From the IMG/VR virus record IMGVR_UViG_2920292642_000002, positions 1-19,430 of that record: 19,430 nucleotides of DNA. The stretch is one strand, 5' to 3'. Positions within the stretch are counted from its first letter, which is position 1. Every line of letters starts with the position of its first letter. Below, piece by piece: positions 2,885 through 19,280 of the stretch. The notes under the pieces are model-generated. The model was not told the origin of the DNA, did no database searches, and worked only from the letters and a program-made list of their open reading frames with translations. This DNA comes from a virus (Duplodnaviria; Heunggongvirae; Uroviricota; Caudoviricetes). A program made the translations under genes and the position numbers.

Positions 2885-2901
2885 GTTAAGAATTTCTGGA
2901 C
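2885..2901. promoter_or_regulatory. 17-bp pseudo-palindromic operator-like motif, copy 1
   Basis: GTTAAGAATTTCTGGAC, intergenic, immediately upstream of the AGGAG RBS on the minus strand. Confidence 0.75.
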
Positions 2902-2913
2902 AGTACGGCCGAA

Positions 2914-3270
2914 CTAAAACCCGAGTTCCTTGGCGGCGCTGTCGATCGCGGTGAAGAGGTCACCTTCCACATAGATAGTGGTGTTACGCTCGTCGGCCCA
3001 GTTACCGCAGGCGAGTTCGACGATCAGGCCAGCGAGTTTACCGGCTGCTGCCTTGTTCTCGATCTGGTCGACGATCGTCTCGTCATCGGTGTTGCTGTCG
3101 ACGCCGATCTCCATGTCGCTCACGATCTGGTCATCCGACTCGATGCTGGAGATGAACTCCCCATAAGCTCTGTTGAATTGTCCCTCGATCGCGGCGAGGC
3201 CGGGGATGAAGATGTTGTCGACGCGGACGCCGCGTTCGCGTAGTGCGATGATCTGTTCGTGTGTGAGCAT
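2914..3270 (-). CDS. Hypothetical acidic phage protein (118 aa)
   Basis: TGATG overlap at 3270; in the operon. Confidence 0.8.
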   Translation of the reverse strand: MLTHEQIIALRERGVRVDNIFIPGLAAIEGQFNRAYGEFISSIESDDQIVSDMEIGVDSNTDDETIVDQIENKAAAGKLAGLIVELACGNWADERNTTIYVEGDLFTAIDSAAKELGF

Positions 3271-3455
3271 CAGAGTACCTTTTCCGCGAGCGTCCGTACC
3301 AGCACCCGCAATTCGTAGAAGTTTCTGGCCTCGTCGATGGCCATCAGAATCCGTTGCTTCTCGACCCGGCGCTTGGCCTCGAAGATGCTGATCCCTTCCC
3401 GCGCGCGCAGGTCCTTGACCTGCTGCACGTCAATCTGCGACACGAGAGCCGACAT
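3270..3455 (-). CDS. Small helical protein (61 aa) with weak EF-Ts N-terminal / bL12 CTD-like resemblance
   Basis: GGAG RBS; segment QVKDLRAREGISIFEAKRRVE. Confidence 0.7.
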   Translation of the reverse strand: MSALVSQIDVQQVKDLRAREGISIFEAKRRVEKQRILMAIDEARNFYELRVLVRTLAEKVL

Positions 3456-3732
3456 CCTGCGGCTCCGCCCCGATGCTCTTCAGATTGGCCCAGCACGTTG
3501 GCCCGACGTAGAAGGTGCCGCTGACCGGGTCCCGGACGTAGCCGGCATCTGGGACGACTACGAACGGGATGCCGGTGATGTCCGGCATCCTCATGTCTGT
3601 ACCGAGGATGCAGGGACCACCAACACCGGGCAATTCGATCTCGTTGGCCACCAGTTCATCAGGAACGCCATAGCGCACGCCGCGCAGCGGGCTCTCGCGA
3701 GGCGGAGGAAGGTCCCTGCAAGGATTCTTCAT
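3430..3732 (-). CDS. Hypothetical phage protein (100 aa, MKNPCRD...)
   Basis: ATG 3732 forms an ATGA overlap with the stop of 3729-4151. Confidence 0.65.
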   Translation of the reverse strand: MKNPCRDLPPPRESPLRGVRYGVPDELVANEIELPGVGGPCILGTDMRMPDITGIPFVVVPDAGYVRDPVSGTFYVGPTCWANLKSIGAEPQDVGSRVAD

Positions 3733-4151
3733 GCTGCTTCCTTCTCCGTGACCCGCGACCGAACCCACGCGTGGAAGTCCATGCGCCTGATGCGCACACA
3801 ATCGTCCGGCCGGTAGACCTCGTGTGAGTAGCCGCGCTCTGGAAAGTGGAAGCGGGCGTAACGCTCGACCGACACTTTCAAGAGTTCGTAGTTCATGTTG
3901 ATCAACTGGACGCAGTCCTTGACGCTGAACCAGTTGCATAGACCTTCGAGGGAATCGGTGACGCTGAGCCATCGGCTCTTGAACGCACGGAAATAGGGAT
4001 GTGGTCCCATCGGCAAGTCGGCAGCCTTCGCACCATCTAGTGTGTAGATGGTGTTCACTGGCCTCGCTTCACCGTCATACCAGAGGCCGCGCCAGTCCTC
4101 ACGACGGCCGACGCGATAGAGCTTGGCCGGAGCCTCGATCAGTTCAATCAT
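3729..4151 (-). CDS. Hypothetical phage protein (140 aa), possible ADP-ribosyltransferase-like fold
   Basis: ATGA coupling at both ends; LYRV / WLSVTDS / HEV pattern. The confidence refers to the CDS; the function is speculative. Confidence 0.8.
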   Translation of the reverse strand: MIELIEAPAKLYRVGRREDWRGLWYDGEARPVNTIYTLDGAKAADLPMGPHPYFRAFKSRWLSVTDSLEGLCNWFSVKDCVQLINMNYELLKVSVERYARFHFPERGYSHEVYRPDDCVRIRRMDFHAWVRSRVTEKEAA

Positions 4152-4906
4152 ATTGTCTCACTCTCCCCTGTATCGACAAGCTTCTCGAACTCGGTGACCT
4201 GCTCCAGAGCACTCTTCAGCGAGTAGGAGAGGTAAGAAATTCTTGACACGATGTCGTCGACTTTCTGGCCCAAGGCAAACTGCTTCTTGGCCGTGGTGTC
4301 GTCGTAGACCGTGTTCAGGTCGATGCCGGCCTTCTCCAGCGTGCGAACCTTCTCCAGCACCTTCTCGGCCTCGCGAGCGCGAAACGTGACAGCGCGCTCG
4401 ACCCGAGCCTCGTATTGCTTCTCAAGCTCGGCCGTCTTCAGCCGCACCGCCGCTTCGACCTCGCCGGCATCGACCTCGCTGGCGCGCCGCAGCATCGCCG
4501 CCACGAAGTTCCGGTTGAGCGGCGTGACCGTGTCCAGATTCTTCTTCGGTGCCGGCTTCTTCACCCGCAACGACCCGTTCGGCAGGACCTCCATATGACC
4601 CCAAAGCGCCGGAAGCTCGTGTGCCTGTACGATGTTCTCGGGCGAAACGATCCACCACTTGTCGCAATACTGGGCGACCGCCTCGGCCTTCTCAGGCAAG
4701 GACAGTTCGCGCCGCCAGTCCGACCGGGAGACCTTGATCTCGAACCCCTCGATCAGGAGCCCGCGTGACGGCCACAGGTTCATGACGACAGCATCCGCAT
4801 GCCGGCGCGCGTTCGCTCCGGTCCCGTTACTGACCTCGAACATGAGTGCGTATTCACGCGGGTTGAAATAGCGGCGCAGTGCCGCCTTCACGTCACCGGT
4901 TCGCAT
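4148..4906 (-). CDS. MmcB-like PD-(D/E)XK nuclease with C-terminal coiled coil
   Basis: FEV...RHADAVVMNLWPSRG...GFEIKVSRSDWRRE...CDKWWIV motif pattern. Confidence 0.8.
   Translation of the reverse strand: MRTGDVKAALRRYFNPREYALMFEVSNGTGANARRHADAVVMNLWPSRGLLIEGFEIKVSRSDWRRELSLPEKAEAVAQYCDKWWIVSPENIVQAHELPALWGHMEVLPNGSLRVKKPAPKKNLDTVTPLNRNFVAAMLRRASEVDAGEVEAAVRLKTAELEKQYEARVERAVTFRAREAEKVLEKVRTLEKAGIDLNTVYDDTTAKKQFALGQKVDDIVSRISYLSYSLKSALEQVTEFEKLVDTGESETI
4231..4247. promoter_or_regulatory. Operator-like motif, copy 2 (inside a CDS)
   Basis: GGTAAGAAATTCTTGAC(ACG); encoded by AT-rich codons (TCA AGA ATT TCT) in a GC-rich gene. Confidence 0.5.
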
Positions 4907-5234
4907 CGATCGCCTTCATGGCAAGGGTGACAAGATGCGGCAGCGGCGTCGTGACAGGAGCGATTGCAAGCGGCGGACGCGGATTCTCGGTCTTCCCGGA
5001 GATGATGATCGGAGGAAGCTCTTTCGAGGCTACGCAATACTTGACGACGCGCTTGTTCTTTGCTTCACGCCGGACCAGATTGAGTCCCACGAGTTTCCGC
5101 AGCGGACGCATCACCGAGGATGCCGCGACCTCATAATCGAAGCCCATATCCTGACCGATGTCGCTCGGACTCATCGGTCCCTTATCGCGCAGCCTATACA
5201 GGACGCGCGCCTGAAATTCATTGAGGATGATCAT
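4893..5234 (-). CDS. Winged-helix (MarR-like) DNA-binding protein (113 aa)
   Basis: QARVLYRLRDKGPMSPSDIGQDMG...SVMRPLRKLVGLNLVRR; ATG 5234 lies 1 nt after the dut stop. Confidence 0.75.
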   Translation of the reverse strand: MIILNEFQARVLYRLRDKGPMSPSDIGQDMGFDYEVAASSVMRPLRKLVGLNLVRREAKNKRVVKYCVASKELPPIIISGKTENPRPPLAIAPVTTPLPHLVTLAMKAIDANR

Positions 5235-5235
5235 G

Positions 5236-5673
5236 TCAGCGCCCCGTCGAACCGAAGCCGCCCTCTCCACGCTGGGATTCCGGCAAGTCGGCGGTTTCCT
5301 CGAACTCGGCATCGGCGTAACTCTCGAAGATCGCCTGCGCGATCTTATCACCGTGCTTGATCGTGAGCGGGACGGTGCCCGTGTTGAGGAGGATTACGCC
5401 GATATCACCCCGGTAGCTCGGGTCGACGACGCCGGCCAGAACGTCGATGCCGCTCTTGTAGGCAAGGCCGCTGCGTGGTGCGATGCGCATGTACCAGCCC
5501 GGCTCGAACGCCATGGACAGGCCGGTTGGAAACAGCTTGCGCGTGCCCGGATATAGCGTGACCTCGCCACCGAGGCCAAGGTCGGCACAGATGTCATATC
5601 CGGCCGCGTCGGGCTCGCTCTTCTTCGGAAGGATTGCAGTCGGGGAATTTCGCCGAACCAGAACTCTAAGCAT
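5236..5673 (-). CDS. dut: Trimeric dUTPase
   Basis: All five motifs: AGYDI, IAPRSG, GVVDPSYRG, GDKIAQ, RGEGGFGSTG. Confidence 0.98.
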   Translation of the reverse strand: MLRVLVRRNSPTAILPKKSEPDAAGYDICADLGLGGEVTLYPGTRKLFPTGLSMAFEPGWYMRIAPRSGLAYKSGIDVLAGVVDPSYRGDIGVILLNTGTVPLTIKHGDKIAQAIFESYADAEFEETADLPESQRGEGGFGSTGR

Positions 5674-6826
5674 GGATACGTTGACCTTTCACAATGTGCC
5701 GGGGGGCGGTCTTCATGATATCGGTGGGATCGCTTGGGTCGGTCATCATCACCGGGTGTGCAGCCAGTTCGACAAGAGCCTGATTGGGCTCGAAGACGCT
5801 GTCGAAAACGAACCCGTTGGCGGCGAGCGGGAAGGGAATATCCGTCCGCTCACCAGTCACGATGACTGCTGGCGACCTTGTCTCGATGCTGATGATACGG
5901 GCGATCTTTTCGGGGCGGAAAGGTCCGGGGACGCTTCCCTCCGAACGGTAGTCCCTAAGTAAACCGATTCTTGCGGCTATGGTTAGGGCTTCGTTAGTAA
6001 ACGCGAGGACATGTCCTCTGACCCGATCTTTCGGAGCTTTATCCGAGGCTACCTCCATGTTGGTTGTGATTCCGAAACGGAGTTCCAGCATCTCAGCGAT
6101 TCGCTGGACGGTATCGAGAGACCGGTGTCTGATGATAGCGTTTCTGTCGTCGATCATGGCTCCGTTGATGAGCCCGAACGCAAACGCCCACGAGGCCTCT
6201 CGTGAGAGAGACATCAGATCAACTCGGAGTTGCTGGGTTTTCGGCTCGATCAACCAACTTGCTGCTCTTGTCAACGTTCGCGACTTCACGAAAACGAGAG
6301 CAGTTGATTCGGTTTTGGTTCGCCGGATGGTAGGACGATAGGCGCGGCCGACACTTCCGTGGCCTTCCTGATCCGCGACAGTAAGTAGGAAATTTGCGAC
6401 ATCGTCGGCGACACTGCCCTCGACCAGAGTCATGTTGCTCGGCCGCTGCCGGTCGGTCGAATGCGTCCCGGAGGCGCAGATCATTCCAGTGAGTGCAAAA
6501 CGCCGGATGTCCTCCTTGATCTGACCCGCCAGAGGCGCGGCCCAATCCAGCAGCGGGGGATTCGCTGCGAAGGCGTCATCGATCGGAACGTATCGGATCA
6601 GGCGACCATCCGGCGTCTTGCGGAGAGCGAAGACCGACTCTGGGGTGAGAGTCAATCGTGCGCCGCTCTCCGTCTCGATGGTGAAAAGCGGCTGCTTCGT
6701 CGCCATCGCTTGGATGCGAACCCCACCTTCCAGCAGCCCCGGCTCGGTGCCGCTGCGGTAGCTCAGAGAGCCGTCCGCAGCTTGGTCGAGGAAGCGAGTC
6801 TCGCTATGGAAGATGGGGTTCAACAT
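5666..6826 (-). CDS. Free-standing degenerate intein-like protein (HINT + LAGLIDADG), 386 aa
   Basis: Intein-like blocks in the correct order: A IFHSETRFLDQAADG, B FTIETESGARLTLTPESVF, C ALTGMICASG, E AFAFGLINGA, H RSLDTVQRIAEMLELRFGI, F IARIISIET, G LAANGFVFDS. Start 6826 is preferred over 6910 because a promoter lies at 6834-6862. Its stop overlaps the dut start by 8 nt. Confidence 0.8.
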   Translation of the reverse strand: MLNPIFHSETRFLDQAADGSLSYRSGTEPGLLEGGVRIQAMATKQPLFTIETESGARLTLTPESVFALRKTPDGRLIRYVPIDDAFAANPPLLDWAAPLAGQIKEDIRRFALTGMICASGTHSTDRQRPSNMTLVEGSVADDVANFLLTVADQEGHGSVGRAYRPTIRRTKTESTALVFVKSRTLTRAASWLIEPKTQQLRVDLMSLSREASWAFAFGLINGAMIDDRNAIIRHRSLDTVQRIAEMLELRFGITTNMEVASDKAPKDRVRGHVLAFTNEALTIAARIGLLRDYRSEGSVPGPFRPEKIARIISIETRSPAVIVTGERTDIPFPLAANGFVFDSVFEPNQALVELAAHPVMMTDPSDPTDIMKTAPRHIVKGQRIHA

Positions 6827-6833
6827 GTCCGCA

Positions 6834-6862
6834 TGCCTAGAGGTTCTGGACCTCTGTGTCAA
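6834..6862 (-). promoter_or_regulatory. Sigma70 promoter of the intein-like gene (leaderless), with motif copy 3 (6835-6851) overlapping the spacer and -10
   Basis: TTGACA-N17(CAGAGGTCCAGAACCTC)-TAGGCA; ATG is 7 nt downstream of the -10 and no SD is present. Confidence 0.7.
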
Positions 6863-6874
6863 GCGTTTCTTAAC
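6858..6874. promoter_or_regulatory. Operator-like motif, copy 4, overlapping the -35
   Basis: GTCAAGCGTTTCTTAAC, 6 nt from copy 3. Confidence 0.6.
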
Positions 6875-6879
6875 GAAGA

Positions 6880-9120
6880 TTAACGGACCGGGCAAGCTCC
6901 CGTGGCGCAATCCTCGATCGCGACGCCGTCGTAGGAGTTGTCGTCGTCAAGGATCAAAGGCTTGAGATTCTTGACATAGGCGTCATAGGTCGACTGCGCC
7001 ACGACCTCCTGCGGCAGGTACGGGTGGCCCAACTGCTCGGCCGTCTTGGTCACGTCCGGACGTTCCAAGAACGACACTCCGATGAAGTGGTCCCACCAGT
7101 CGTCCAACCACTCGACGATCTCGGAAACTTCGTGTGGCTCGAAGGCGACCGTAATCGAGCAATTGTGCTGGACGTAGTGATCCATCAGCGTCCTGTACCG
7201 TTCAAGCTGAACGACGGCCGGCTCGGCGTCGACGAAGATCGTCTCCTTGACCCCGTTGACCACGCGCTCGACGGGCGTGAGTCCCTTTTGATCGTACTTC
7301 ACAGGGAAGCGGATCAGCTTTTCCGTGACCTGCTGGTCCTTACCGACCGGCTTGTCGAAGACGTAGTAGCCGGCGTCGAGCGCCTTCTTCACCAACGGAT
7401 CGTGGATCGAGACGGCGACGTTGTTGAAGATGTGCTCGGCCTTCGGCTGATGCGCACCTTCCTTGATCTCGTCTCCGTCCTCGCCCATGGCCTTGGAGCC
7501 GGTGCCATTCGGCTGAACCTGTGTCACCAACGCCGGGCGCGGCGTGCCGAGTTCGTCAGCCATGGAGTTCGCAGCCCAGACGGCGACCTTCTTGAACCCG
7601 TCCAGCATTTCGGCGTTGTCCGCGTACTCCCAATCGACATAGCCGGTCGGGCTGACGCCGCAGAGGCGCAACAGCTTGTTGTTGTCGTCCCACGCCGTCT
7701 GGAGGACGCCGTCGCGCATCGACACGCAGGTCTGCCGGTAGTTGGCGCGCGCCAGAATGTAGGCGGCACGGTGCAGCGCAGGGAGATCACCATTGAAGCG
7801 ATGCATGACGATCTGCACGAGGTTGCAGAAGCCCTTGGACGGCAAAATGATCTCCGCACACGGGTTGCAACCATCGGCCCACGGCGCGCGCTTCTTAGCA
7901 TGTGCCATGTTGTAGAAGCCGGGCTCGCCCGAAAGCTGGATCGAGACGAACATCCGCACAAGCTCTTCGATCGTCGGCTTGCGCATGAACGTGAGCGAGT
8001 TGTTCGACTGGCCGCGCCAGTAGCGATCCGGGTAGTAGTTGTCCTTTGCCTTGGCGAAGCGCTCGGCGTCCGGGTGATCGGCATCAAGAAGCGCGATCTG
8101 GGCGGAGCGGCGCGACGACAGGACGGTGCCGAGGGCGTTGACGATGTCGAGGATGTCGATCGCGTCCAGCGCGCGGCCGGCCGCGTTGTTCATCACGTCG
8201 ATGATGATCTTGAGGCCGTCGCGCAGCGGCTCCCAGCCAGAGGAAATCCAACCATAGCCGCGCAGGCGCTGACCGGCCGGGCGAAGCTGGCTGAAGTCGA
8301 GCACGAGCTTCTTGGCGCGGTACTTCTTGGCCATGAGCGTGCCGGCGAGCTTCGCCCACGCCTTGGCACTGTCGCCGACGACGATCCGCCACTCACCCGT
8401 CTCCGGGTTGAAGGTGTTGGTGTTCTTCTCCTGACCGCCGCGCCCGGCACGCGTCGACGCAACGAACTCCACCTTCTCGATCCGCTGGCCGAAGCCAGAC
8501 AGGAGACCGGGCTGCGGACGAAAGCCCACGCCACAGCCTTGCAACAAAAGCCAAAATGCGTCGACGATGTCGGCCGGAATGCGGATGTCGGTGAAGGAGC
8601 AGTTGAACGCCGCGCTCGGCCGCTCACGGATCACGTCGGTGCCGGCCATCCACTTGACGCGGCCGGACAGCGAGCCCTTACGCGTGCGGATGATCTCGCG
8701 AAGCTCGGCAAGCTCGGCCTCTTCTTCGGCCGTCAGTTGCCAGAGACGATCATACGCGACAACGATGGCGTCGCGCTTGTGCTTTAGGCGCTCTAGCTCG
8801 GACTCCACCGCAGGAATCTTGGCGAGATCGTCAGCGACATCCTCCAGCCCTTCCATACCGAGGCCGGCAAACTGTCGAGACAGGGACTCAATTTCGAGAA
8901 TCTTGGACCAGAGCGCTTCGATGTCGGTCTGAACCTCTTCGAAGGCGTCCTTCATGTAGCTGTATTTCGCCTTCTTCGCTTCCTCCCAGAGGTAGCGCTG
9001 ATGGCCGATCTGCCGGTCGAGAGAGGCGGCTTTGGTTTCGAGACGGGCTCCACCGTCGACGGCTGGACGAAGATATGTACGGTGCTCTACGAAGGCGGCA
9101 CGCGCGGACTGATTGGCCAT
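6880..9120 (-). CDS. nrdJ: Monomeric class II (adenosylcobalamin-dependent) ribonucleotide reductase, RTPR/NrdJm type
   Basis: RTY...HQRYLWE and SGRVKWMAG N-terminal motifs, AFNCSF, GCNPCAEIILPSKGFCNL (thiyl Cys, Glu, Cys), QPNGT, C-terminal CATGACP redox pair. Confidence 0.95.
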   Translation of the reverse strand: MANQSARAAFVEHRTYLRPAVDGGARLETKAASLDRQIGHQRYLWEEAKKAKYSYMKDAFEEVQTDIEALWSKILEIESLSRQFAGLGMEGLEDVADDLAKIPAVESELERLKHKRDAIVVAYDRLWQLTAEEEAELAELREIIRTRKGSLSGRVKWMAGTDVIRERPSAAFNCSFTDIRIPADIVDAFWLLLQGCGVGFRPQPGLLSGFGQRIEKVEFVASTRAGRGGQEKNTNTFNPETGEWRIVVGDSAKAWAKLAGTLMAKKYRAKKLVLDFSQLRPAGQRLRGYGWISSGWEPLRDGLKIIIDVMNNAAGRALDAIDILDIVNALGTVLSSRRSAQIALLDADHPDAERFAKAKDNYYPDRYWRGQSNNSLTFMRKPTIEELVRMFVSIQLSGEPGFYNMAHAKKRAPWADGCNPCAEIILPSKGFCNLVQIVMHRFNGDLPALHRAAYILARANYRQTCVSMRDGVLQTAWDDNNKLLRLCGVSPTGYVDWEYADNAEMLDGFKKVAVWAANSMADELGTPRPALVTQVQPNGTGSKAMGEDGDEIKEGAHQPKAEHIFNNVAVSIHDPLVKKALDAGYYVFDKPVGKDQQVTEKLIRFPVKYDQKGLTPVERVVNGVKETIFVDAEPAVVQLERYRTLMDHYVQHNCSITVAFEPHEVSEIVEWLDDWWDHFIGVSFLERPDVTKTAEQLGHPYLPQEVVAQSTYDAYVKNLKPLILDDDNSYDGVAIEDCATGACPVR

Positions 9121-9140
9121 CTAATGTTTCCTATGCACGC

Positions 9141-9175
9141 AGAAAGCCAAACCGGACGCGCTTTCACGCGCCCGG
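9141..9175 (-). terminator. Terminator/attenuator-like hairpin in the nrdJ leader
   Basis: Minus strand CCGGGCGCG-TGAAAG-CGCGTCCGG followed by TTTGGCTTTCT. Confidence 0.55.
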
Positions 9176-9211
9176 CTGGCGCTTGGTTTGGCTCTTGGAG
9201 AGAGAATCCGA

Positions 9212-9240
9212 ATGATAGATATTCTTGACACGCCGGTCAA
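9212..9240 (-). promoter_or_regulatory. Sigma70 promoter upstream of nrdJ, with motif copies 5 (9213-9229) and 6 (9236-9252)
   Basis: TTGACC-N17(GGCGTGTCAAGAATATC)-TATCAT. Confidence 0.75.
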
Positions 9241-9295
9241 AGAAATCTGGTCAGTGGCTCACGATTTAGCGCCACCAGCATCCGGACCCGACTAT

Positions 9296-9658
9296 CTATG
9301 GTACGTCTGGAACTTGAAGGCCTGCCGCCCTTACCAACACGTCTACCCGGACAACCCTGCCGTCCAGTAGATATCCTCGATAGTCACGGCTCATCCTCTT
9401 GCCGAGGATCAGCCGGGCCTTTTCAATCAGGGTAAGGCCATCGTCGTCGGCGACGCGCGGACGCATCACCGGCCTCGGGGCGGTATTGGTCCCCTTGGTC
9501 TTGTGGGACGCGGGAACTCCCAGTTCCGCGATCCACCGTTTCACTCTCGCGAGGGAAACCCCATAGTAGGCGGCGATCTCCTCGCGGTTCATCCCGTTTT
9601 CCCGCAACTTCCGAAGTTCCTCCCGGCTAGGTGTGACCGGGGATGTACCCATTCGCAT
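9296..9658 (-). CDS. HTH DNA-binding protein (120 aa)
   Basis: N-terminal HTH REELRKLRENGMNREEIAAYYGVSLARVKRWI; C-terminal GYLLDGR segment. Confidence 0.8.
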   Translation of the reverse strand: MRMGTSPVTPSREELRKLRENGMNREEIAAYYGVSLARVKRWIAELGVPASHKTKGTNTAPRPVMRPRVADDDGLTLIEKARLILGKRMSRDYRGYLLDGRVVRVDVLVRAAGLQVPDVP

Positions 9659-9914: not shown

Positions 9915-9939
9915 TACGCAAACTCCTGTTAGGAATGTT

Positions 9940-9969
9940 ATCCTAAACCGATCAACCTATACGTGTCGA
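9940..9969 (-). promoter_or_regulatory. Putative sigma70 promoter for the 95-aa/HTH operon
   Basis: TCGACA (9969-9964) with TAGGAT (9945-9940, 18-nt spacer) or TTAGGA (17-nt spacer). Confidence 0.55.
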
Positions 9970-9984
9970 GAACGAATTAGGAAC
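9970..9984. promoter_or_regulatory. Alphaproteobacterial LexA (SOS) box
   Basis: GAAC-GAATTAG-GAAC is an exact GAAC-N7-GAAC match; intergenic and abutting the -35. Confidence 0.7.
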
Positions 9985-9989
9985 GCCGG

Positions 9990-11484: not shown

Positions 11485-11501
11485 GTTAAGAATTACTGGA
11501 C
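11485..11501. promoter_or_regulatory. Operator-like motif, copy 7
   Basis: GTTAAGAATTACTGGAC(ACG), overlapping the stop of the 121-aa gene and directly before the AAGGAG RBS of the kinase. Confidence 0.75.
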
Positions 11502-11851
11502 ACGGCGGGCGAAACTTCGCCGGGGTCGTCGAAAGCGCTCGTGTAGGCTGGCTGCAACTCCATCGGGTGATACGCCTTGCTCAAGTCGATCGCGGGCAAT
11601 GCGTCGCCGGGGAAGTCGAGTGGCCGGAACAGCGGGCGAGTCCAATCCCGCTCTTCCTCCACGGTAGTGATCCCGCGCTCGATCAGCACGCCTTGAATGT
11701 AGCCGAGCCAGCGGTTGGCCTTCTCGATCGGCATGCCGGCGCGGCAGCCCTCGATAAGCTCCTCCCGAAGCTTGTGCAGTTTCGAGTCCGAGGGGTTCCA
11801 GTTCTCGTAACGCAGTGCGACTAGAATGATGGCTTGATGGTAAGGCGTCAT
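11486..11851 (-). CDS. Hypothetical phage protein (121 aa)
   Basis: GAGG RBS; KANRWLGYIQGVL segment of a type seen in small phage proteins. Confidence 0.8.
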   Translation of the reverse strand: MTPYHQAIILVALRYENWNPSDSKLHKLREELIEGCRAGMPIEKANRWLGYIQGVLIERGITTVEEERDWTRPLFRPLDFPGDALPAIDLSKAYHPMELQPAYTSAFDDPGEVSPAVSSNS

Positions 11852-11858
11852 CGGGTCC

Positions 11859-13268: not shown

Positions 13269-13497
13269 TGAACGACATTTCGTCGATGATGGTGATTGGA
13301 GCTTCGGTCTCGATCCACGCCTTCGCGCCGCATTTCAGGCCGGTCGGATCGTAGACGGCGATGGACGGGCCGTGGATATCGACTCCACGGCCGTACCTCG
13401 TCTTCCCGCCGATCTTGATCGTGTAGACCGGGCGGTTGCCACCATCGCGCTTGTTGAACGCGATGAACTGGCGGTTGACGTGGATGATCGCCTTCAT
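13240..13497 (-). CDS. Conserved-type phage hypothetical protein (85 aa)
   Basis: IHVN...PVYTIK...GPS..VY...LKCGAKAWIET pattern; ATGA overlap at 13494-13497. Confidence 0.8.
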   Translation of the reverse strand: MKAIIHVNRQFIAFNKRDGGNRPVYTIKIGGKTRYGRGVDIHGPSIAVYDPTGLKCGAKAWIETEAPITIIDEMSFSEAKSEHHT

Positions 13498-13766
13498 GCC
13501 AGCCAGATGATCCCGGTCTTTCCGGACCTGAGCTTCTTGCGCTCGCCGGAGTCCACCACGATGCCGGCGTTGCGAAGCTCGGTGATGCGCGGCCGGACCG
13601 ACAGCGGCGAAAGCTTCAGCGCCTCCGCGACCTCGTCACAGGTCATCGGCTCCTCCCGCAGGAGTTCGAGGACGCGCTGGCGCATTGATTTCGCGTTCGC
13701 GGTGGAAGGCATCGCCGCAAACGACGTGTCGGTGTTCTGGTGTCCGATTCCGTTGACGTACGACAT
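13494..13766 (-). CDS. Winged-helix DNA-binding protein (90 aa)
   Basis: RVLELLREEPMTCDEVAEALKLSPLSVRPRITELRNAGIVVDSG. Confidence 0.85.
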   Translation of the reverse strand: MSYVNGIGHQNTDTSFAAMPSTANAKSMRQRVLELLREEPMTCDEVAEALKLSPLSVRPRITELRNAGIVVDSGERKKLRSGKTGIIWLA

Positions 13767-13768
13767 GG

Positions 13769-14917: not shown

Positions 14918-14936
14918 CGGGAGCCCCGTGTGTTGG

Positions 14937-14967
14937 AGAAAAGGTCCCCGGCGTCGGGAGCCGGGGA
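14937..14967 (-). terminator. Possible intrinsic terminator upstream of the ligase
   Basis: Minus strand TCCCCGGC-N7-GCCGGGGA followed by CCTTTTCT. Confidence 0.5.
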
Positions 14968-14975
14968 GACGGGGA

Positions 14976-15218
14976 TCAGGCGTTGATTTTCGGCAGCGTG
15001 GCGCGGAGAGCGCTTGCGTCCTTGGCCTTCTCGGCGGCGGTCGAAGCGGTGAGCAGGGCGCGGTCGGCGACTTTCTGCGCAGCGACTTCCTTGGCCTTCT
15101 CCTGCGCCTCCAGCTTTTCGATGTAGGCGTCGACGGAGGCGAGTTTGTTCACAGCCTTGTCGAAGGTCTTTCCGTCGATGAGGCCGAGACGGATCAGCAG
15201 TCTAACGATGAGGTCCAT
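14976..15218 (-). CDS. Small Ala/Lys-rich helical protein (80 aa)
   Basis: GAAAGG RBS; amphipathic helical composition. Confidence 0.8.
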   Translation of the reverse strand: MDLIVRLLIRLGLIDGKTFDKAVNKLASVDAYIEKLEAQEKAKEVAAQKVADRALLTASTAAEKAKDASALRATLPKINA

Positions 15219-15301
15219 CGTGAATTACCTTTCAATGTCAGGGATTGATGGGCATGCGGACCGACCGGGGCTCTGAGCCCCGGCCACGCGGTTGACGCGC
15301 T

Positions 15302-16210
15302 TTAGAAGGAGCGACGACGGGTCGTGCGCTCGGCCGGCACCGGCTTGGTGGTGGTCTCGGCCGGAGGAGCCTCCGTGGCGGCGGCAGCCTGTTCGGCAGC
15401 AGCGGCCTTGCGGGCGCGAGCTTCCTCCAACTGCCGCATCAGAGCGGCTTCCTCGTCGTCGACCTCCGGCTCGGCGGCGGGAGCGGCCTGCTGCTCGATA
15501 GCCTTGGTCTCGCGCGGTGCAGACTTCGGCTTCTCCTCCTCGATGAGGTTCGAGTTGGAGTCGGACTCCGAGACGGTGCGGCCGTCGCCGTACTGGGCGA
15601 TCAGGTCCTCCTCGGACATCCAGTCGACGATCTTGAAGATCGGGTAGTGCTTCTTCCCGTGCTTCTTCTCCTTGGGCATGTACGAGCCCTTGGTGAACTC
15701 CACGACCGGAAGCTCGCCCGGATGGTTCTTGTACTGCCGGCCGTAGTCCTTCAGCAGATCACCCAGCGGGCGCAGGGCCGACTTGGTGGTCGTCTTGTAG
15801 ACGATCTGGACGCCGGCATGATCAGCGCCGAGCGGGCGAAGGTCGATCGCGAACTGCTCCGACCAGCCGTCCTGCGTGCCGTCAGCATGCTTCTCGTAAG
15901 GACCGTGGTCCGTGAGTTCATGCTTGCCGGGCGGCGGACCCTGAAGGATCGGGACCATGATCTCGTCGACCACCTCCTCATCCTTCCAGCAAATCCAGCC
16001 GCGACGGGCGTTCGCCACGTCGGCAACGAGGCGTTCTTCGGCCTCGATCTCCTGCGCGCTCTGCCCGTAGGAGAACTCGCCGGAGTTGCCGTTGAACTTG
16101 GCGTAGACGGCCGAAGAGCCACCAAGATCGTTACCGGCTGCCGCAAACGGATCGTAGGCGCTCTCCTGAGCGATCTCCGTCCGGGTACGGGTTGCAACTG
16201 CTGTACTCAT
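15302..16210 (-). CDS. Putative phage ssDNA-binding/recombination protein with a long low-complexity C-tail
   Basis: Strong AAGGAG RBS; aromatic-rich core (KFNGNSGEF, GWICW, DGW, YPIFKIVDW), acidic/Ala-rich tail, and position next to a nuclease. The function is an inference. Confidence 0.7.
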   Translation of the reverse strand: MSTAVATRTRTEIAQESAYDPFAAAGNDLGGSSAVYAKFNGNSGEFSYGQSAQEIEAEERLVADVANARRGWICWKDEEVVDEIMVPILQGPPPGKHELTDHGPYEKHADGTQDGWSEQFAIDLRPLGADHAGVQIVYKTTTKSALRPLGDLLKDYGRQYKNHPGELPVVEFTKGSYMPKEKKHGKKHYPIFKIVDWMSEEDLIAQYGDGRTVSESDSNSNLIEEEKPKSAPRETKAIEQQAAPAAEPEVDDEEAALMRQLEEARARKAAAAEQAAAATEAPPAETTTKPVPAERTTRRRSF

Positions 16211-16259
16211 TGTGTCTCCTTTCGTTCAGCAGGGTGTGCTTGACTTCCGACGCCCGGAT

Positions 16260-16276
16260 GTCAAGAATTTCTGGAC
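16260..16276. promoter_or_regulatory. Operator-like motif, copy 8, overlapping a minus-strand TTGACA
   Basis: GTCAAGAATTTCTGGAC(ACG), intergenic upstream of the putative SSB. Confidence 0.75.
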
Positions 16277-16283
16277 ACGCAGA

Positions 16284-17435
16284 TCACGCGTCTTCGTCGT
16301 CGAGGTCCTTGAAGGTGACCTTCAGGATTTCATACGGGTTACCGAGCTTCATATGCTCGGAGACATCGATGCCGGCCGCTTCGAGCGAGGACTTGTCGAG
16401 AGTCTGCCGGCCCTGTGCCATAGTGTAGGAAACCGACCAACTGTTTCCTTGCGCCTTGTTCGAGCCATGGCGACGCAGGACCTCCTTGATCTCCTCATTG
16501 AGGCGATCCAGTTCCTCCTTCGCCTTCTTCGCTGCCTTGGTCGCAGCGCGGCGGCGGAACAGGAGTTCGTCCTTGAGCAGATCGCCCACGAGCGCCGGGT
16601 CCGTCTGGCGTTTCTTGTCCGTCGTCTTGCCCGGCATCGCCTTCACCGTCGTGTCGAGGCACGACTGTTGGTAAGGGCAATACTGACAAGTGCCGTCGAT
16701 CACACCTTCGCGATGAAGCTTGGACGGATCAGTCGTCTTGAAGACCAATTCCGCGCGATCCTGCGCAATCTTGAACTTCTTCTCGTCGAACTTGACGACG
16801 AATACTTCGATGTCATCCAAGAACGACGCGTTGATGTACAGGATCACAGCGTAGTTGGGCTTGAACGCCGTCGTCTGACGCATCAACCCCATCTGAATCT
16901 GGGTCTGGCCGTGGTGGATCGCCTTTTCCTCGGACAGGTCCACACGCGGGTCGATCGACTTGACCTCCAGCATGAAGCAGTCGGTGCCGAGATCGACGAC
17001 GCCGTACTTGGCCAGAGCATTGCGGGCCACACCACGGATCAGACCGTCCGGTGTAACCGACAGCACGCCCTCCGGCCGGCCGTTATCGTCGAAGTCGTCC
17101 GGATCGCCGTCGAAGAGGGTGATCTGGTTCTCACCGCCCATCAGGAACTCGAACAGCTTGAGTTCCTTCGCGCCCCACTCCATGGCGGGGACAACGATGT
17201 GGTTCTCGATGATGTCGCCGCGCCGCAGCGCGCCCCACGACTCCTCGTATTCCGGATCGGGCTCGAAGCCGTTGCGCTTGTACCAAGCCTTGCGCAGGCA
17301 GCCGAACGCCTCCGAGCCGCCGAGCGTCTTGTTGCGGTCGTGACCCCACTTCTTGTTGGTGCCGTCGACCCACGACTGGAAGATCGCCTTGAAATCCAAC
17401 GGCTCTTTGGTCGTAGTCAGCATGTCAGGACTCAA
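16284..17435 (-). CDS. Cas4/AddB-like PD-(D/E)XK exonuclease with a probable 4Fe-4S cluster
   Basis: GCLRKAWY (Cys1), TPDGL, EVKS, QTQIQM, CQYCPYQQSC (Cys2-4). Confidence 0.88.
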   Translation of the reverse strand: MSPDMLTTTKEPLDFKAIFQSWVDGTNKKWGHDRNKTLGGSEAFGCLRKAWYKRNGFEPDPEYEESWGALRRGDIIENHIVVPAMEWGAKELKLFEFLMGGENQITLFDGDPDDFDDNGRPEGVLSVTPDGLIRGVARNALAKYGVVDLGTDCFMLEVKSIDPRVDLSEEKAIHHGQTQIQMGLMRQTTAFKPNYAVILYINASFLDDIEVFVVKFDEKKFKIAQDRAELVFKTTDPSKLHREGVIDGTCQYCPYQQSCLDTTVKAMPGKTTDKKRQTDPALVGDLLKDELLFRRRAATKAAKKAKEELDRLNEEIKEVLRRHGSNKAQGNSWSVSYTMAQGRQTLDKSSLEAAGIDVSEHMKLGNPYEILKVTFKDLDDEDA

Positions 17436-17649
17436 TGGTGATGGTGCCGTAGAAGTCTTTCCAGCACTCAGGGATGAGGGTGTCGCTGTAGACGCCAGCG
17501 CGGCCGTGAACGGTCGTGGTGAGGGTGACGCCGGTCCGAGGGCCGGTGAACATCACGACGTGCGGAGGATCATCCGGGAGGCCTCCCGGAACACAGAGGC
17601 GCTTCAGGATCGGGTAGGGACGGGTGTTTGGTGTGGCTGTAGTCTTCAC
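17425..17649 (-). CDS. Hypothetical phage protein (74 aa)
   Basis: ATGA overlap at 17646-17649; overlaps the start of the nuclease gene. Confidence 0.7.
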   Translation of the reverse strand: MKTTATPNTRPYPILKRLCVPGGLPDDPPHVVMFTGPRTGVTLTTTVHGRAGVYSDTLIPECWKDFYGTITIES

Positions 17650-17858
17650 TGCGCGTCACCCTTCATGTCCTCGTAGCAGGCGCGGTAGCCGGCTTCGTAG
17701 GCATTGGTCAGCATCTCGGAGGTGATCTGCTCAGCCTTGGCGGCGATCTCCGATTCAGCATTCTTGCGGATGTTGGTGATGACGCTGGAGTTGGAAATGG
17801 CGGAGCGCTCCACCATAAAATCCAAATATTCCTTGTCGTTCGGTTCCATTGTCTGCAT
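17646..17858 (-). CDS. Hypothetical phage protein (70 aa)
   Basis: In-operon ORF with AYEAGY motif; SD weak and start uncertain (17858 or 17849). Confidence 0.65.
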   Translation of the reverse strand: MQTMEPNDKEYLDFMVERSAISNSSVITNIRKNAESEIAAKAEQITSEMLTNAYEAGYRACYEDMKGDAQ

Positions 17859-17872
17859 ATCGCTTGGCTCTT

Positions 17873-17889
17873 GTCCAGTAATTCTTGAC
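17873..17889. promoter_or_regulatory. Operator-like motif, copy 9 (inverted orientation)
   Basis: GTCCAGTAATTCTTGAC; its reverse complement GTCAAGAATTACTGGAC matches copy 7 at 16/17. Confidence 0.75.
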
Positions 17890-17898
17890 GCTTATCGA

Positions 17899-17942
17899 GG
17901 CAGACGGCCGGGTCGAAGAGGCAAACTCCCCGGCCGTCTGCC
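17899..17942. repeat. 14-bp perfect inverted repeat forming a long hairpin
   Basis: GGCAGACGGCCGGG (17899-17912) / CCCGGCCGTCTGCC (17929-17942). Confidence 0.85.
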
Positions 17943-17980
17943 AAGCGCTGGTAACGAACAGCGCTAGGGGTATTGGTGGA

Positions 17981-18619
17981 TCAGGCCGCGTCGGCGGGAG
18001 CGGGGCTTGGGAGGGCGATCGCACCCTGCTCCACCAATTTCATGAGCACACGCGCGGTGGCTCGGCAGTCGATGATGGCGTTGTGAGCGCCTTCCAGTTC
18101 CTCGTCGAAGAAGAACTTCATGCACTCGGCCAGCTTCGGCCACTTGTAGTCCTCGTTGTGCAGCGGGCGCTTGCCCTTCTTCTTCACGATCGGCGTCGCC
18201 GCCTTCATCGTGCAGACGATCGACTTGTCTCCGAACGGGTCGTCGCCGACCGCGCCTTCGAGCGCAAGCTGCACCATCGCCACGGCCCGGCGCATGACAA
18301 TCGTGTCGAACGCCGTGTTGTGACACACGATCATGTCTGCCGCGTTCACCATGCCAAGGAACACGTTGATGACGTGGTCGAGATCGAGCCCGACTTCCTC
18401 GGCAATCTGCTGCGTGACCCCGTGGATCAGTGCGACCTCCTGCGGGATGTCCCACGAGGACGGAAACACGATCAGGTCCGCCGAGCCGAGTTCGCGGCCG
18501 GTATTCAGGTCGATCAGCAATGCACCAAGCTGCACGAGCTTGGGCTGCTGCGGGGCGATCGGGTCGGCCTTGAAGTCGGCCTTTCCGGTCGTCTCCGTAT
18601 CGAAAATCAGAGCTTTCAT
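17981..18619 (-). CDS. Stand-alone DEDDh 3'-5' exonuclease (DnaQ-like)
   Basis: FDTETTG (ExoI), CHNTAFD (ExoII), AHNAIID (ExoIII). Confidence 0.93.
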   Translation of the reverse strand: MKALIFDTETTGKADFKADPIAPQQPKLVQLGALLIDLNTGRELGSADLIVFPSSWDIPQEVALIHGVTQQIAEEVGLDLDHVINVFLGMVNAADMIVCHNTAFDTIVMRRAVAMVQLALEGAVGDDPFGDKSIVCTMKAATPIVKKKGKRPLHNEDYKWPKLAECMKFFFDEELEGAHNAIIDCRATARVLMKLVEQGAIALPSPAPADAA

Positions 18620-18651
18620 CGGGAGGTCGTTAACCTTAATTTCTGGGTGGA

Positions 18652-18680
18652 TTGTTAGATTATCTGGACACGAACGTCAA
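18652..18680 (-). promoter_or_regulatory. Sigma70 promoter upstream of the exonuclease, with motif copy 10 (18653-18669) overlapping the spacer and -10
   Basis: TTGACG-N17(TTCGTGTCCAGATAATC)-TAACAA. Confidence 0.7.
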
Positions 18681-18695
18681 GAAAAAGTTAGGAAC
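18681..18695. promoter_or_regulatory. Near-consensus LexA box abutting the -35
   Basis: GAAA-AAGTTAG-GAAC, one mismatch to GAAC-N7-GAAC; same position relative to the -35 as the box at 9970. Confidence 0.5.
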
Positions 18696-18696
18696 A

Positions 18697-19047
18697 TCAC
18701 CACAGCGGCCGGCCGGTCGGACCCATGCGGCACTGGCCCGTGTTGGGCTCGACGCCCACTGCGATATCGTCCCAGATTTCGATCGTGTCGAAGTCCTTCT
18801 CATTCGTGATCTTCAGCGGCGGGATGTCTAGTTTGGCCAACCACGCGTGCATAAGAGTTTGAAGAGTCTGGCGATTTTCCACATCGCACCAGCGCGCGGT
18901 GAAGATTCGAACCTCGACCCCATTGGCCAGCCAGCGCTTGATCCGATCGACCATGGGCATGATCGGCTCGCCAAGGTGGTTATACCCCTTCCAGCCGTTG
19001 TAGACGGCGAGCGTCCGGTCGAAATCGACGCCAATCCAACCACTCAT
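18697..19047 (-). CDS. HAD-superfamily phosphatase (PseT phosphatase-like)
   Basis: VDFDRTL (motif I), IFTAR (motif II), WDD (motif IV). Confidence 0.85.
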   Translation of the reverse strand: MSGWIGVDFDRTLAVYNGWKGYNHLGEPIMPMVDRIKRWLANGVEVRIFTARWCDVENRQTLQTLMHAWLAKLDIPPLKITNEKDFDTIEIWDDIAVGVEPNTGQCRMGPTGRPLW

Positions 19048-19280
19048 AGATGCTCTCCTCGAACGATGCGTTTCTCAAATTCTGTCAAGCAATTCTTGAC
19101 ATCGCGGACCTCGGAAAGGAGGCGCTGCATGGGTGTCGTTTCGTCGATCGGCGAATGCGCGTGGAAGCCGAATCGGTGACCCTTGAAAATCTCCTTGATG
19201 ACCTCGGAGCATTCCTCGCCGAGGCGGGCGATGACCTCCTCGAATGGCGCGGTATCAAGCGGGTATTTGATCAGGTCCAT
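19044..19280 (-). CDS. MazG-like all-alpha NTP pyrophosphatase-like protein (78 aa)
   Basis: LGEECSEVIKEIFK ... LSEVRDV acidic pattern; TGATG and ATGA overlaps at its two ends. Confidence 0.6.
   Translation of the reverse strand: MDLIKYPLDTAPFEEVIARLGEECSEVIKEIFKGHRFGFHAHSPIDETTPMQRLLSEVRDVKNCLTEFEKRIVRGEHL
19084..19100. promoter_or_regulatory. Operator-like motif, copy 11 (inside a CDS)
   Basis: GTCAAGCAATTCTTGAC, a near-perfect palindrome. Confidence 0.5.

Follow-up and report, generated by a model that had tools for sequence, protein, structure and literature searches.

A dispersed 19-bp palindrome in a 129-kb prophage resembles the operator of a CI-type repressor

Described operator systems and the prophage

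Among described systems, the lambdoid phages are close to the dispersed repeat considered here, and in lambda and P22 the centres of tandem operators are separated by about 23-24 bp. The operators of P22 c2 and the lambdoid CI repressors (18 bp; 2r1j, 3jxb) are rotationally symmetric, conserve their outer 6-7 bp around a variable A/T-rich centre, and overlap -35 and -10 boxes, features that the prophage repeat shares. In P22 operators, the repressor contacts the outer bases, and the central 4 bp are read indirectly, with A/T preferred (PMC4267663). The prophage sites differ in having a centre of 5 bp instead of 4, in a half-site that is itself a -35 hexamer, and in number, with about 60 spread over 129 kb compared to six at two control regions for lambdoid CI.

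Silencing from many scattered sites is also known. The temperate phage P1 (about 94 kb) resembles the prophage in that its C1 repressor keeps it silent at many scattered operators, but these are asymmetric 17-mers, about 15-20 in number, the P1 prophage is a plasmid, and C1 does not have the CI/LexA fold. In Cluster A mycobacteriophages, one immunity repressor (gp71 of L5) serves dozens of genome-wide stoperators, many of them in short intergenic gaps and some off promoters, where they are roadblocks (PMC4351075). The prophage likewise has dozens of dispersed sites, including non-promoter sites in short intergenic gaps. The L5 site, GGTGGMTGTCAAG, also embeds the complement of a -35 box. However, L5 sites are asymmetric, monomer-bound and strictly oriented relative to transcription, whereas no such asymmetric, single-orientation site was found for the prophage repeat, which is palindromic, forms 23-bp tandems and has only a mild orientation bias (TTGACA faces the gene at 32 of 50 sites, with TGTCCAG in the opposite half at 30 of the 50).

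The Cluster O mycobacteriophages offer a further likeness, being prolate-headed siphoviruses with more than 30 copies of a 17-bp dyad (TGTTCGG-N3-CCGAACA), many intergenic and about a third within genes, for which a dimeric binder has been predicted (PMC4351075). Their repeats differ in lying mostly off predicted promoters and in having no assigned function or candidate repressor, and the phages in having no integrase (PMC4351075). Set against these systems, the prophage most likely represents the known strategy of dispersed-operator silencing in a new phage group.

The palindrome, its copies and its conservation

The window, meaning the whole 19,430-nt stretch of DNA analysed, contains attL, where the element with all the copies has its left border; the complete prophage is 128.8 kb long and is bounded by attL and attR of a tRNA-Arg. 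The consensus of the repeat is T-GTCMAG-AAWTT-CTKGAC-A, and scores in bits come from a symmetric weight matrix derived from its copies in the prophage. What a sequence-only reading of the window had described as a 17-bp pseudo-palindrome is indeed a dyad repeat, but its true length is 19 bp, with a T and an A outside the 17-mer, and it thus has the symmetry of a lambdoid-type repressor operator (about 14-20 bp). Two 7-bp half-sites, TGTCMAG and CTKGACA, flank a 5-bp centre; information is concentrated in positions 0-6 and 12-18, and the A/T-rich centre is less conserved. The features in the window are listed below, the palindromic copies without strand.

585-630, plus strand: attL, the final 46 nt of tRNA-Arg(TCG), with an exact repeat at the far prophage end (C34:226957-227002)
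2885-2901: putative operator copy, 27.5 bits, at a gene junction 11 nt 5' of the start codon of ORF 2637-2873(-)
4231-4247: intragenic copy, 20.3 bits, within ORF 4148-4906(-) and made of rare codons
6835-6851: downstream partner of a tandem pair, 6.4 bits, 23 bp from 6858
6858-6874: putative upstream operator of the same pair, 22.5 bits, minus-strand half CTTGACA
9213-9229: downstream partner of 9236, 13.8 bits, 23 bp apart, gene-facing half containing the -10 box TATCAT
9236-9252: putative upstream operator of the ribonucleotide-reductase promoter, 5.7 bits, containing the -35 box TTGACC
11485-11501: putative operator copy, 24.6 bits, overlapping the stop codon of ORF 11486-11851(-)
16260-16276: putative intergenic operator, 28.5 bits, 49 nt 5' of ORF 15302-16210(-), gene-facing half CTTGACA
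17873-17889: putative intergenic operator, 26.4 bits, 5' of ORF 17646-17858(-)
18653-18669: downstream partner of 18676, 14.9 bits, 23 bp apart, overlapping the -10 box (TAACAA)
18676-18692: upstream member of that tandem pair, 9.5 bits, containing the -35 box TTGACG
19084-19100: copy, 29.0 bits, within the 3' end of ORF 19044-19394(-)

Weight-matrix scores together with the 23-bp spacing identify each of the 11 positions named earlier as a copy or a phased partner; 6835 and 9236, weak alone at 6.4 and 5.7 bits, each lie exactly 23 bp from a stronger copy. The reported absence from trxA and int is also correct: no copy lies there or in the tRNA, and the first match is the one at 2885. The copy at 18676 is a twelfth, additional to those first listed.

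In a pattern search allowing up to 3 mismatches, the window gave 13 strand-matches at 7 places compared to 0.07 expected from 200 shuffles. At a cut-off of 16 bits, the weight matrix found 57 strong copies in the prophage (128.8 kb) compared to 3 matches in the rest of the host genome (5.98 Mb), which is the enrichment that the operator proposal had called for. Those three matches are weak and none is a true palindrome, the scan found no real copy in the host chromosome, and 400 genomes of the family hold at most one. The prophage has 57-73 sites, of which 50 lie between genes; roughly one copy in three is not at a recognisable promoter. The roughly 60 copies span every module, among them the early gene cassette, tRNA island, structural region and lysis region. 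The suggestion of a regulon of early and replication genes was therefore too narrow, and the regulon extends over the entire phage, beyond the early genes.

Conservation in related phages, another check attached to that proposal, is seen in Mesorhizobium phage Cp1R7A-A1, which has 56 copies. Positions are kept at 28 of the 32 alignable sites, despite flanks only 66-80% identical, and across the footprint at the sites identity is highest in the half-sites (88%), lower in the centre (63%) and lowest in the flanks (37-49%). The IMG/VR contigs L025 and L026 retain sites too. Several of the copies in the window illustrate this (Cp1R7A-A1 positions are prefixed L001). The 2885 copy, flush against the ribosome-binding site AGGAGA with no -10 box after it, is kept at the same junction (L001:7807, 28.8 bits). 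The 11485 copy lies 11 nt 5' of the dNMP kinase start (11473), with no space for a promoter, and its counterpart 12 nt 5' of the dNMP kinase gene (L001:17013, 28.3 bits). The 19084 copy, 37 nt 5' of the start of ORF 18697-19047(-), is found at the same place (L001:24596, 29.1 bits), and 6858 (L001:11773) and 16260 (L001:21723; 9720 in L026) are kept as well. The 9213 and 18653 sites have strong orthologues (L001:14134, 25.9 bits, and L001:24166, 28.5 bits), and the pair to which 18653 belongs exists in L026 (7593/7616). The 17873 site has no conserved counterpart in the two relatives compared, and the 4231 region has no homologue in Cp1R7A-A1. Both intragenic copies had been thought to use atypical codons; this holds for 4231, where TCA, AGA, ATT and TCT have relative adaptiveness of 0.04-0.19 against a gene mean of 0.66, but not clearly for 19084 (0.47 vs 0.50).

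Promoter overlap and readings of the repeat

At most sites the gene-facing half is a sigma-70 -35 box (CTTGACA). A "TA" follows this half by 16-18 nt at 21 of 50 sites, compared to a background of about 1.2 per spacing and to 4 in the antisense direction. Gene-directed -35- and -10-like hexamers 16-18 bp apart occur at about 40% of sites, and the promoter sites of the motif are centred near -39. In the window, four of the nine sigma-70-like matches coincide with or adjoin motif sites, three of them on the gene strand and one antisense. The top match, TTGACC-17-TATCAT (10/12), is at the 9236 operator; TGGACA-18-GACAAT is a promoter-like match at 17873; ORF 5666-6826(-) has a promoter whose -35 box is the CTTGACA of 6858 and whose -10 box, TAGGCA, is the gene-facing half of 6835; and the TTGACG of 18676 belongs to the promoter of the 3'-5' exonuclease gene 17981-18619(-). 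The sequence-only reading placed the repeat over -35 boxes, in promoter spacers or before ribosome-binding sites. Such overlaps exist, but the half-site being the -35 hexamer itself goes beyond mere overlay.

The prophage has 9 tandem pairs spaced exactly 23 bp apart and Cp1R7A-A1 has 14, compared to 0.08 expected, and the downstream copy contains the -10 box. As in lambdoid operators, the repeat thus combines overlap of the core promoter (-35 and -10) with a fixed spacing that permits cooperative binding. Junction and intragenic sites have no such promoter, among them several 11-23 nt 5' of start codons and the strong, conserved 2885, 11485 and 19084, so a promoter cannot account for the whole motif family.

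We consider it reasonably probable that a dimeric helix-turn-helix repressor, encoded by the phage, uses the palindrome as its operator and silences the whole prophage; that the sites are bound, by what, and that binding represses are all three points we infer. A bound dimer would occlude the -35 hexamer within the gene-facing half-site. About 10 promoters have a second operator, exactly 23 bp downstream of the first, and since this is the distance from -35 to -10, its half-site would double as the -10 box; two dimers, probably cooperative, would then cover the entire core promoter. By analogy with the stoperators, copies within genes or at gene junctions, 11 nt 5' of start codons, could act only as roadblocks or anchoring sites. 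Together, some 60 sites would directly silence every module of the 129-kb prophage. The earlier idea of one repressor with many dispersed operators instead of a single cI switch fits the dyad symmetry, A/T-rich centre, -35/-10 overlap, 23-bp phasing, confinement to the prophage and kept positions; what does not fit is its restriction to early and replication genes.

It is unlikely that the sites instead belong to a phage-encoded positive factor, an activator or RNA-polymerase recruiter that marks promoters in lytic growth. The centre near -39 of the many sites in promoters is close to the class II activator position, relatives that are lytic in the laboratory retain sites (PMC4961962), and the T5 A1-like proteins of phiCbK-like phages have been suggested to change the specificity of the polymerase (PMC3556154). 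Against this, a promoter half so close to the -35 consensus would need no activator, three of the strong conserved sites (2885, 11485 and 19084) have no promoter to activate, and coverage of the -10 box by the tandem partner speaks against an activator, which would not sit there.

The third of copies without a recognisable promoter could suggest a function at the level of the DNA itself, such as nucleoid, condensation or partition anchoring, recombination marks at module borders, or a packaging aid, and the similar 17-bp dyads of Cluster O, mostly off promoters, have no known function (PMC4351075). This is quite improbable, as the motif is tied to transcription by being systematically fused to -35 and -10 boxes and by a TTGACA half that tends to face the downstream gene, and the sites do not lie at the ends of the segments that differ between the prophage and Cp1R7A-A1.

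There is little likelihood that the repeat is a promoter element only, with the host RNA polymerase itself recognising an extended -35 box plus upstream sequence and with no dedicated binder. The half facing the gene matches the rhizobial -35 consensus, CTTGAC, the A/T centre is where a proximal UP element would be expected, and four of the nine sigma-70-like window matches coincide with the motif, but polymerase recognition gives no reason for a mirror-image half as strongly conserved as the -35 half. It also leaves unexplained the copies at 23 bp in promoter spacers, the conserved copies that lie inside genes or directly abut ribosome-binding sites, and a host genome that has the same polymerase without such palindromes.

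A host regulator such as CtrA (TTAA-N7-TTAAC) is a very remote prospect: some copies read GTTAAG...CTTAAC and hence TTAA-N7-TTAA, 2885 and 11485 have one such half, and CtrA binds and mildly activates the Cp1R7AA1_019 promoter (PMC9437464), but most prophage copies have TCAAG or TCCAG in their halves and not the TTAA-N7-TTAA(C) box of the host regulon, the conserved GAATT-like centre is foreign to that box, a host regulon is hard to match with the near absence from the host chromosome and the family, and the early cassette has separate CtrA half-sites (TTAACC, TTAACCAT) 2-5 nt upstream of the palindrome.

The candidate repressor and related phages

For the preferred reading, an operator of a phage repressor, the most likely binder and best candidate, judging from its sequence and predicted structure, is a CI-type protein encoded elsewhere in the prophage.

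G000:C34:221332-221994 (L007:9332-9994), outside the window: candidate repressor, 220 aa

Residues 20-78 are a Cro/C1-type (XRE) helix-turn-helix (Pfam HTH_31 and HTH_3), whose nearest solved relative is the N-terminal domain of P22 c2 (E 5e-7; profile 3e-11), with the recognition helix SRSAIGQWE compared to SNVAISQWE in P22 c2. In the AlphaFold model (pLDDT 89.5), the N-terminal domain lies 0.9 A from P22 c2 and the C-terminal domain is LexA/S24-like, the best matches to the model, over its full length, being the lambda-186 hybrid repressor, 186 CI, lambda CI and LexA. Pfam finds no S24 peptidase domain, and in a sequence alignment, made without active-site superposition, no GDSM-type serine precedes the conserved GD motif. 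Phage 186 CI, whose C-terminal domain is among the best structural matches (2fkd, TM 0.78; full-length 2fjr, 7jvt), does not undergo RecA-driven self-cleavage and is inactivated by an antirepressor, which would fit the missing catalytic serine of the candidate. It differs in acting at one promoter region and two flanking sites.

In contrast to the lambdoid phages, no divergent cI/cro switch lies beside the candidate's gene. Its own promoter, CTTGACA-17-TAACTG, has the -35 half and lacks the left half, which fits a gene that needs to stay on in the lysogen. Among the 4 helix-turn-helix proteins tested, only the candidate has homologues in all five relatives with dispersed palindromes. The screen for DNA-binding domains covered part of the prophage's proteins, and the binder may be another regulator. 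In the metagenomic relatives L082-L084, the recognition helix of the homologues is changed (SRSA-A/V-S/N-F/W-W-V), but GTCAAG-N5-CTTGAC sites are retained nearby, so either helix and motif do not cleanly co-vary or the bases are read only by the conserved S-R-S.

Cp1R7A-A1 and DSS3phi8 have been described as lytic or probably virulent (PMC9437464, PMC4961962). They nevertheless retain 56-70 sites, which suggests that the function of the motif may extend beyond lysogeny. The distant relatives DSS3phi8 and RcXuper have dispersed palindromes of their own, TGTCA-N7-TGACA. One could tentatively propose, as a possibility that we rate below even, that the large phiCbK-related siphophages of Alphaproteobacteria (Cp1R7A-A1-like, DSS3phi8/RcXuper-like and Lacusarx/RXM-like) share a genome-wide CI-type silencing, in which an operator is fused to nearly every sigma-70 promoter, with half-sites and spacing specific to each lineage (TGTCM-N9-KGACA, TGTCA-N7-TGACA and CGTTAA-N2-TTAACG) and host CtrA sites in addition. 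If true, shared silencing would supply, for those of the phages that are regarded as lytic, the mechanism that proposed lytic deferment or pseudolysogeny has lacked. In DSS3phi8 and RcXuper, the homologue of the candidate adjoins the integrase.

The dispersed palindrome and the prophage that carries it

The left part of the stretch is organized as follows:

Start of the window: trxA
554-630: tRNA-Arg(TCG) gene
707-2020: tyrosine integrase gene, after the tRNA gene
Beyond the integrase: genes for nucleotide metabolism and replication, in a long minus-strand run

The 3' end of the tRNA gene (585-630) is repeated exactly, over 46 nt, at positions 226957-227002 of the host assembly contig C34. This places the window at the left end of a prophage of 128.8 kb (C34:98194-227002), and this att repeat at tRNA-Arg(TCG) bounds a complete prophage of the Cp1R7A-A1 type. 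Among sequenced phages, the nearest is Mesorhizobium phage Cp1R7A-A1, a phiCbK-like siphovirus of 131 kb; it shares the gene order and is 78% identical across 44% of the window. Its lineage has been described as probably virulent, and the prophage seen here shows that it does integrate.

The sequence-only reading had described copies of a 17-bp repeat at 2885, 4231, 6835, 6858, 9213, 9236, 11485, 16260, 17873, 18653 and 19084. All 11 positions were borne out, 6835 and 9236 as sites that are weak singly and are phased partners of stronger ones, and a twelfth site lies at 18676. The 17-mer gives 13 strand-matches at seven places in the window, compared with 0.07 expected. Over the 6.1-Mb assembly, 38 of the 70 places with up to three mismatches are inside the prophage, as are all of those with none or one. 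An iterated symmetric weight matrix extends the motif to a 19-bp palindrome, T-GTCMAG-AAWTT-CTKGAC-A, with high information in both 7-bp halves and less in the A/T-rich center. With a cutoff of 16 bits, this matrix finds 57 copies in the prophage against 3 in the rest of the assembly, which makes the motif roughly 880 times denser in the prophage; a cutoff of 12 bits gives 73 and 34. No match beyond the prophage is a true palindrome, and therefore there is no host regulon. Among 400 other genomes of the host family, none has more than one perfect copy. Single copies of a perfect palindrome, TGTCAAGGAWTCCTTGACA, occur in three otherwise unrelated genomes of that family (G355:C37:11363, G358:C82:6499, and G183:C35:17665), and the near variants TGTCAAGGATTGCTTGACA and TGTCAAGGATTACTTGACA occur in two more (G380:C61:5510 and G116:C107:8144). 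A conserved regulator that recognizes this half-site, of host or mobile-element origin, may have its operator there.

The suggestion that conservation in related phages would bear on the repeat was followed up in Cp1R7A-A1, where 56 copies score at least 16 bits; a pattern search gives 28 matches per strand and none with the reversed control. Thirty-two of the 57 strong prophage sites can be aligned to it across the site, with flanks 66-80% identical, and 28 of these have a Cp1R7A-A1 site at the mapped position. In ungapped alignments of 22 orthologous pairs, identity is 88% in the half-sites, 63% in the center, and 37-49% in the flanks. Seven window sites (2885, 6858, 9213, 11485, 16260, 18653, and 19084) have counterparts at the same junctions, and no counterpart of 17873 or 4231 is kept. 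Conserved sites are present as well in two IMG/VR contigs, L026 and L025, which share about 70% identity with the prophage; the counterparts of 16260 and of the 18653 pair are among these sites.

Sites within promoters and sites away from them

Read toward the gene, the site is TGTCCAG-AAWTT-CTTGACA, and its final seven bases are the rhizobial -35 consensus. Orientation was scored at 50 sites whose flanking genes lie on one strand; gene calls beyond the window are crude and GC3-based, so start-codon distances there are approximate. The half facing the gene favors T at position 14, giving TTGACA (32 of 50), and the half facing away favors G, giving TGTCCAG (30 of 50). A "TA" begins 16-18 nt past the gene-facing half at 21 of the 50 sites, compared with 4 on the antisense side and a background of about 1.2 per spacing. 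This loose test was used because alphaproteobacterial -10 boxes are weak; a strict TAnnnT test finds just 13 of 116 site-orientations. The best sigma-70-like match of a consensus scan of the window, TTGACC-17-TATCAT, falls on the 9236/9213 pair, and three more lie on or at motif sites (18676/18653 and 17873 on the gene strand, 16260 antisense). A full promoter is carried by a repeated early-gene cassette 50-63 kb past the window end. It runs from a TTAACC CtrA-type half-site through a palindrome ending in CTTTACA, 16-17 nt, and TATGGT to a shared leader, GTCAACGCAACGGAG, and ATG.

Strong sites also occur in tandem. The prophage has nine partners at exactly 23 bp and Cp1R7A-A1 has 14, where about 0.08 is expected per offset, and there are almost none at other offsets. 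With a 17-bp spacer, a -35 hexamer and a -10 hexamer begin 23 bp apart; accordingly, the gene-facing half of the downstream operator became a -10 box. In the window, these boxes are TATCAT at 9213, TAGGCA at 6835, and TAACAA at 18653. Two dimers bound to a tandem pair would span the promoter between roughly -52 and -7, which is the layout of a repressor and not of an activator.

Could the repeat be a promoter element and nothing else? The overlap with -35 boxes speaks for this, but several sites lie elsewhere. Those at 2885 and 11485, both conserved in Cp1R7A-A1, stand 11 nt before start codons and abut the ribosome-binding site, with no -10 box in either direction. The conserved site at 19084 is inside the 3' end of a gene, and the one at 4231 is intragenic and uses the rare codons TCA, AGA, ATT, and TCT. 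A promoter alone is thus insufficient, and a DNA-binding protein accounts for every class of site. CtrA boxes were rejected as well, as the halves are not TTAA and a host regulon is absent. An RNA hairpin, terminator, or RNase site was dismissed by inspection, since both orientations function and an 8-1-8 palindrome has no loop.

The sites are most likely dispersed operators of one regulator, for which a phage CI-type repressor is the candidate. The sequence-only reading, one repressor with many dispersed operators, holds in this respect; its restriction to an early regulon does not, because the sites cover the whole phage. They are also part of promoters. This is a known strategy in a new form, with predicted operators built into promoters phage-wide.

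Other elements were seen near these promoters. At the ribonucleotide reductase gene (window 9121-9212), the tandem-operator promoter is followed by about 85 nt of untranslated leader, which contains a strong hairpin (9130-9185). The short word GTTAGGAAC / GTTCCTAAC (six copies, control 1) is found at window 9927-9946, 9975-9983, and 18687-18695 and at four other places in the prophage; some promoters, the one of the CI-like gene among them, have it 10-25 nt upstream. Position 9927 also has a separate inverted repeat, GTTAGGA-N6-TCCTAAC, which is perfect. At C34 ~166400-178200 (49-61 kb past the window end), the small genes of the early cassette are interspersed with 18 copies of a 26-bp palindrome, CGTTAACC-N12-GGTTAACG, each with two CtrA-type TTAACC half-sites. 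Cp1R7A-A1 has only six perfect copies, and the set probably corresponds to the cluster of CtrA sites described in the Cp1R7A-A1 terminal repeat region. On the attR side, a strong operator (25.8 bits) lies at C34:226927-226943, 12 nt from the att core, with a second one 75 bp from it. In the excised circular phage, these are predicted to lie about 135 nt upstream of int, so integration parts int from this control region.

The candidate repressor

The host is excluded as the source of the binder because host sites are absent. Four HTH proteins encoded by the prophage were compared:

Window 4893-5351: small HTH protein
Window 9296-9658: small HTH protein
Window 13494-13766: small HTH protein
C34:221332-221994 (L007:9332-9994): CI-like protein, 220 aa, flanked by the lysis genes and the rightmost operon

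The last is the sole CI-like gene found in the prophage, and of the four proteins only this one has homologues in Roseobacter phage DSS3P8 (DSS3phi8), RcXuper, Lacusarx, and RXM; the homologue adjoins the integrase in DSS3phi8 and RcXuper. An XRE-type HTH spans residues 20-78. Over its full length, the AlphaFold model (pLDDT 89.5) is most similar to the lambda-186 hybrid repressor, 186 CI, lambda CI, and LexA. No S24 domain is found by Pfam, and no GDSM serine is seen in the alignment, which would resemble 186 CI, a non-cleaving repressor. By sequence, the nearest solved relative is the N-terminal domain of P22 c2 (E 5e-7; 3e-11 with a profile), with the recognition helix SNVAISQWE as against SRSAIGQWE here and a fit of the modeled HTH at 0.9 A. 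P22 repressor binds the outer bases of 18-bp symmetric operators and reads their uncontacted, A/T-preferring center indirectly (PMC4267663). The motif has the same anatomy, with conserved outer halves and an A/T-rich center.

The CI-like gene's own promoter, CTTGACA-17-TAACTG, is without a matching left half, and in relatives that half is degenerate only (Cp1R7A-A1, L001:800; L083:223; L084:1268). The nearest homologues of the protein (P0007, P0008, and P0016) are 36-40% identical, and their recognition helices read SRSAANWWT, SRSSINFWC, and SRSAVNWWT. No closer relative was found in single-protein scans of genomes and viral contigs, or in viral contigs scanned with P0007 and P0008, and a metagenome scan with a five-sequence alignment gave three short contigs only. 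In this assembly, the public product of the gene has 130 aa (P0002, residues 91-220) and lacks the HTH domain. The frame is nevertheless open over all 220 aa, and its product can be aligned with Cp1R7A-A1 gp198 over the full length; the P0002 start codon is probably annotated too far downstream.

The repeat is absent from the accounts of Cp1R7A-A1 and its relatives, which describe CtrA boxes, integrase, and repressor genes (PMC9437464, PMC4961962, PMC7643831, PMC3556154); an earlier mention is possible in Gunathilake et al. 2021, the original Cp1R7A-A1 description. The closest described systems are the P22 and lambda operators, the L5 stoperators, the P1 C1 operators, and the unexplained 17-bp dyads of Cluster O mycobacteriophages (PMC4351075). 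If the reading of CI-type operators is true, a 129-kb temperate phage is silenced by one CI-type repressor directly occupying about 50 promoters and a dozen non-promoter sites, without a single switch and cascade. Direct silencing at many sites has been documented so far mainly in P1 and L5-like mycobacteriophages, whose sites are asymmetric and unrelated to this palindrome. The sites offer a ready promoter map for a poorly annotated phage group. Together, the operator, the candidate repressor, and the neighboring CtrA half-sites make the group's lysis-lysogeny logic directly testable.

Other palindromes in distant relatives

The motif was not found in DSS3phi8, RcXuper, Lacusarx, phiCbK, or RXM. 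Four of these phages have dispersed palindromes of their own.

Dispersed palindromes (up to one mismatch; control, reversed pattern)
Phage; pattern; copies; control
Prophage studied here; TGTC[AC]-N9-[TG]GACA; 66; 7 (3+0+4)
Cp1R7A-A1; TGTC[AC]-N9-[TG]GACA; 78; 3 (0+2+1)
DSS3phi8 (KT870145, L054-L061); TGTCA-N7-TGACA; 70; 2
Rhodobacter phage RcXuper (OP186293, L075-L081); TGTCA-N7-TGACA; 52; 2
Sphingobium phage Lacusarx (KY629563, L062-L068); CGTTAA-N2-TTAACG; 11; 0
Citromicrobium phage RXM (OL963731, L069-L074); CGTTAA-N2-TTAACG; 15; 0

In DSS3phi8 and RcXuper, the sites often lie over TTGACA boxes and often form pairs 29-43 bp apart. No mention of them was found in the DSS3phi8 paper. The prediction is that the same protein family governs 50-70 sites in marine roseophages. 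The recognition helices parallel the palindrome types: SRSA(I/V)GQWE, SRAAVGQWE, and SRATIVQYE or SRASMVHYE. This fits one repressor family with lineage-specific sites, on a basis of only three lineages. In the metagenome contigs L082-L084, the helix is changed (SRSAASFWV, SRSAVNWWV), yet GTCAAG-N5-CTTGAC sites adjoin. With three lineages fitting and these contigs contrary, sequence comparison leaves co-variation of helix and half-site ambiguous. Two further observations concern single genomes or pairs: in the DSS3phi8/RcXuper genomes, one perfect TGTCA-N7-TGACA copy precedes the integrase gene by about 140 nt, and RXM carries an additional palindrome, GGACAA-N-TTGTCC, in six copies.
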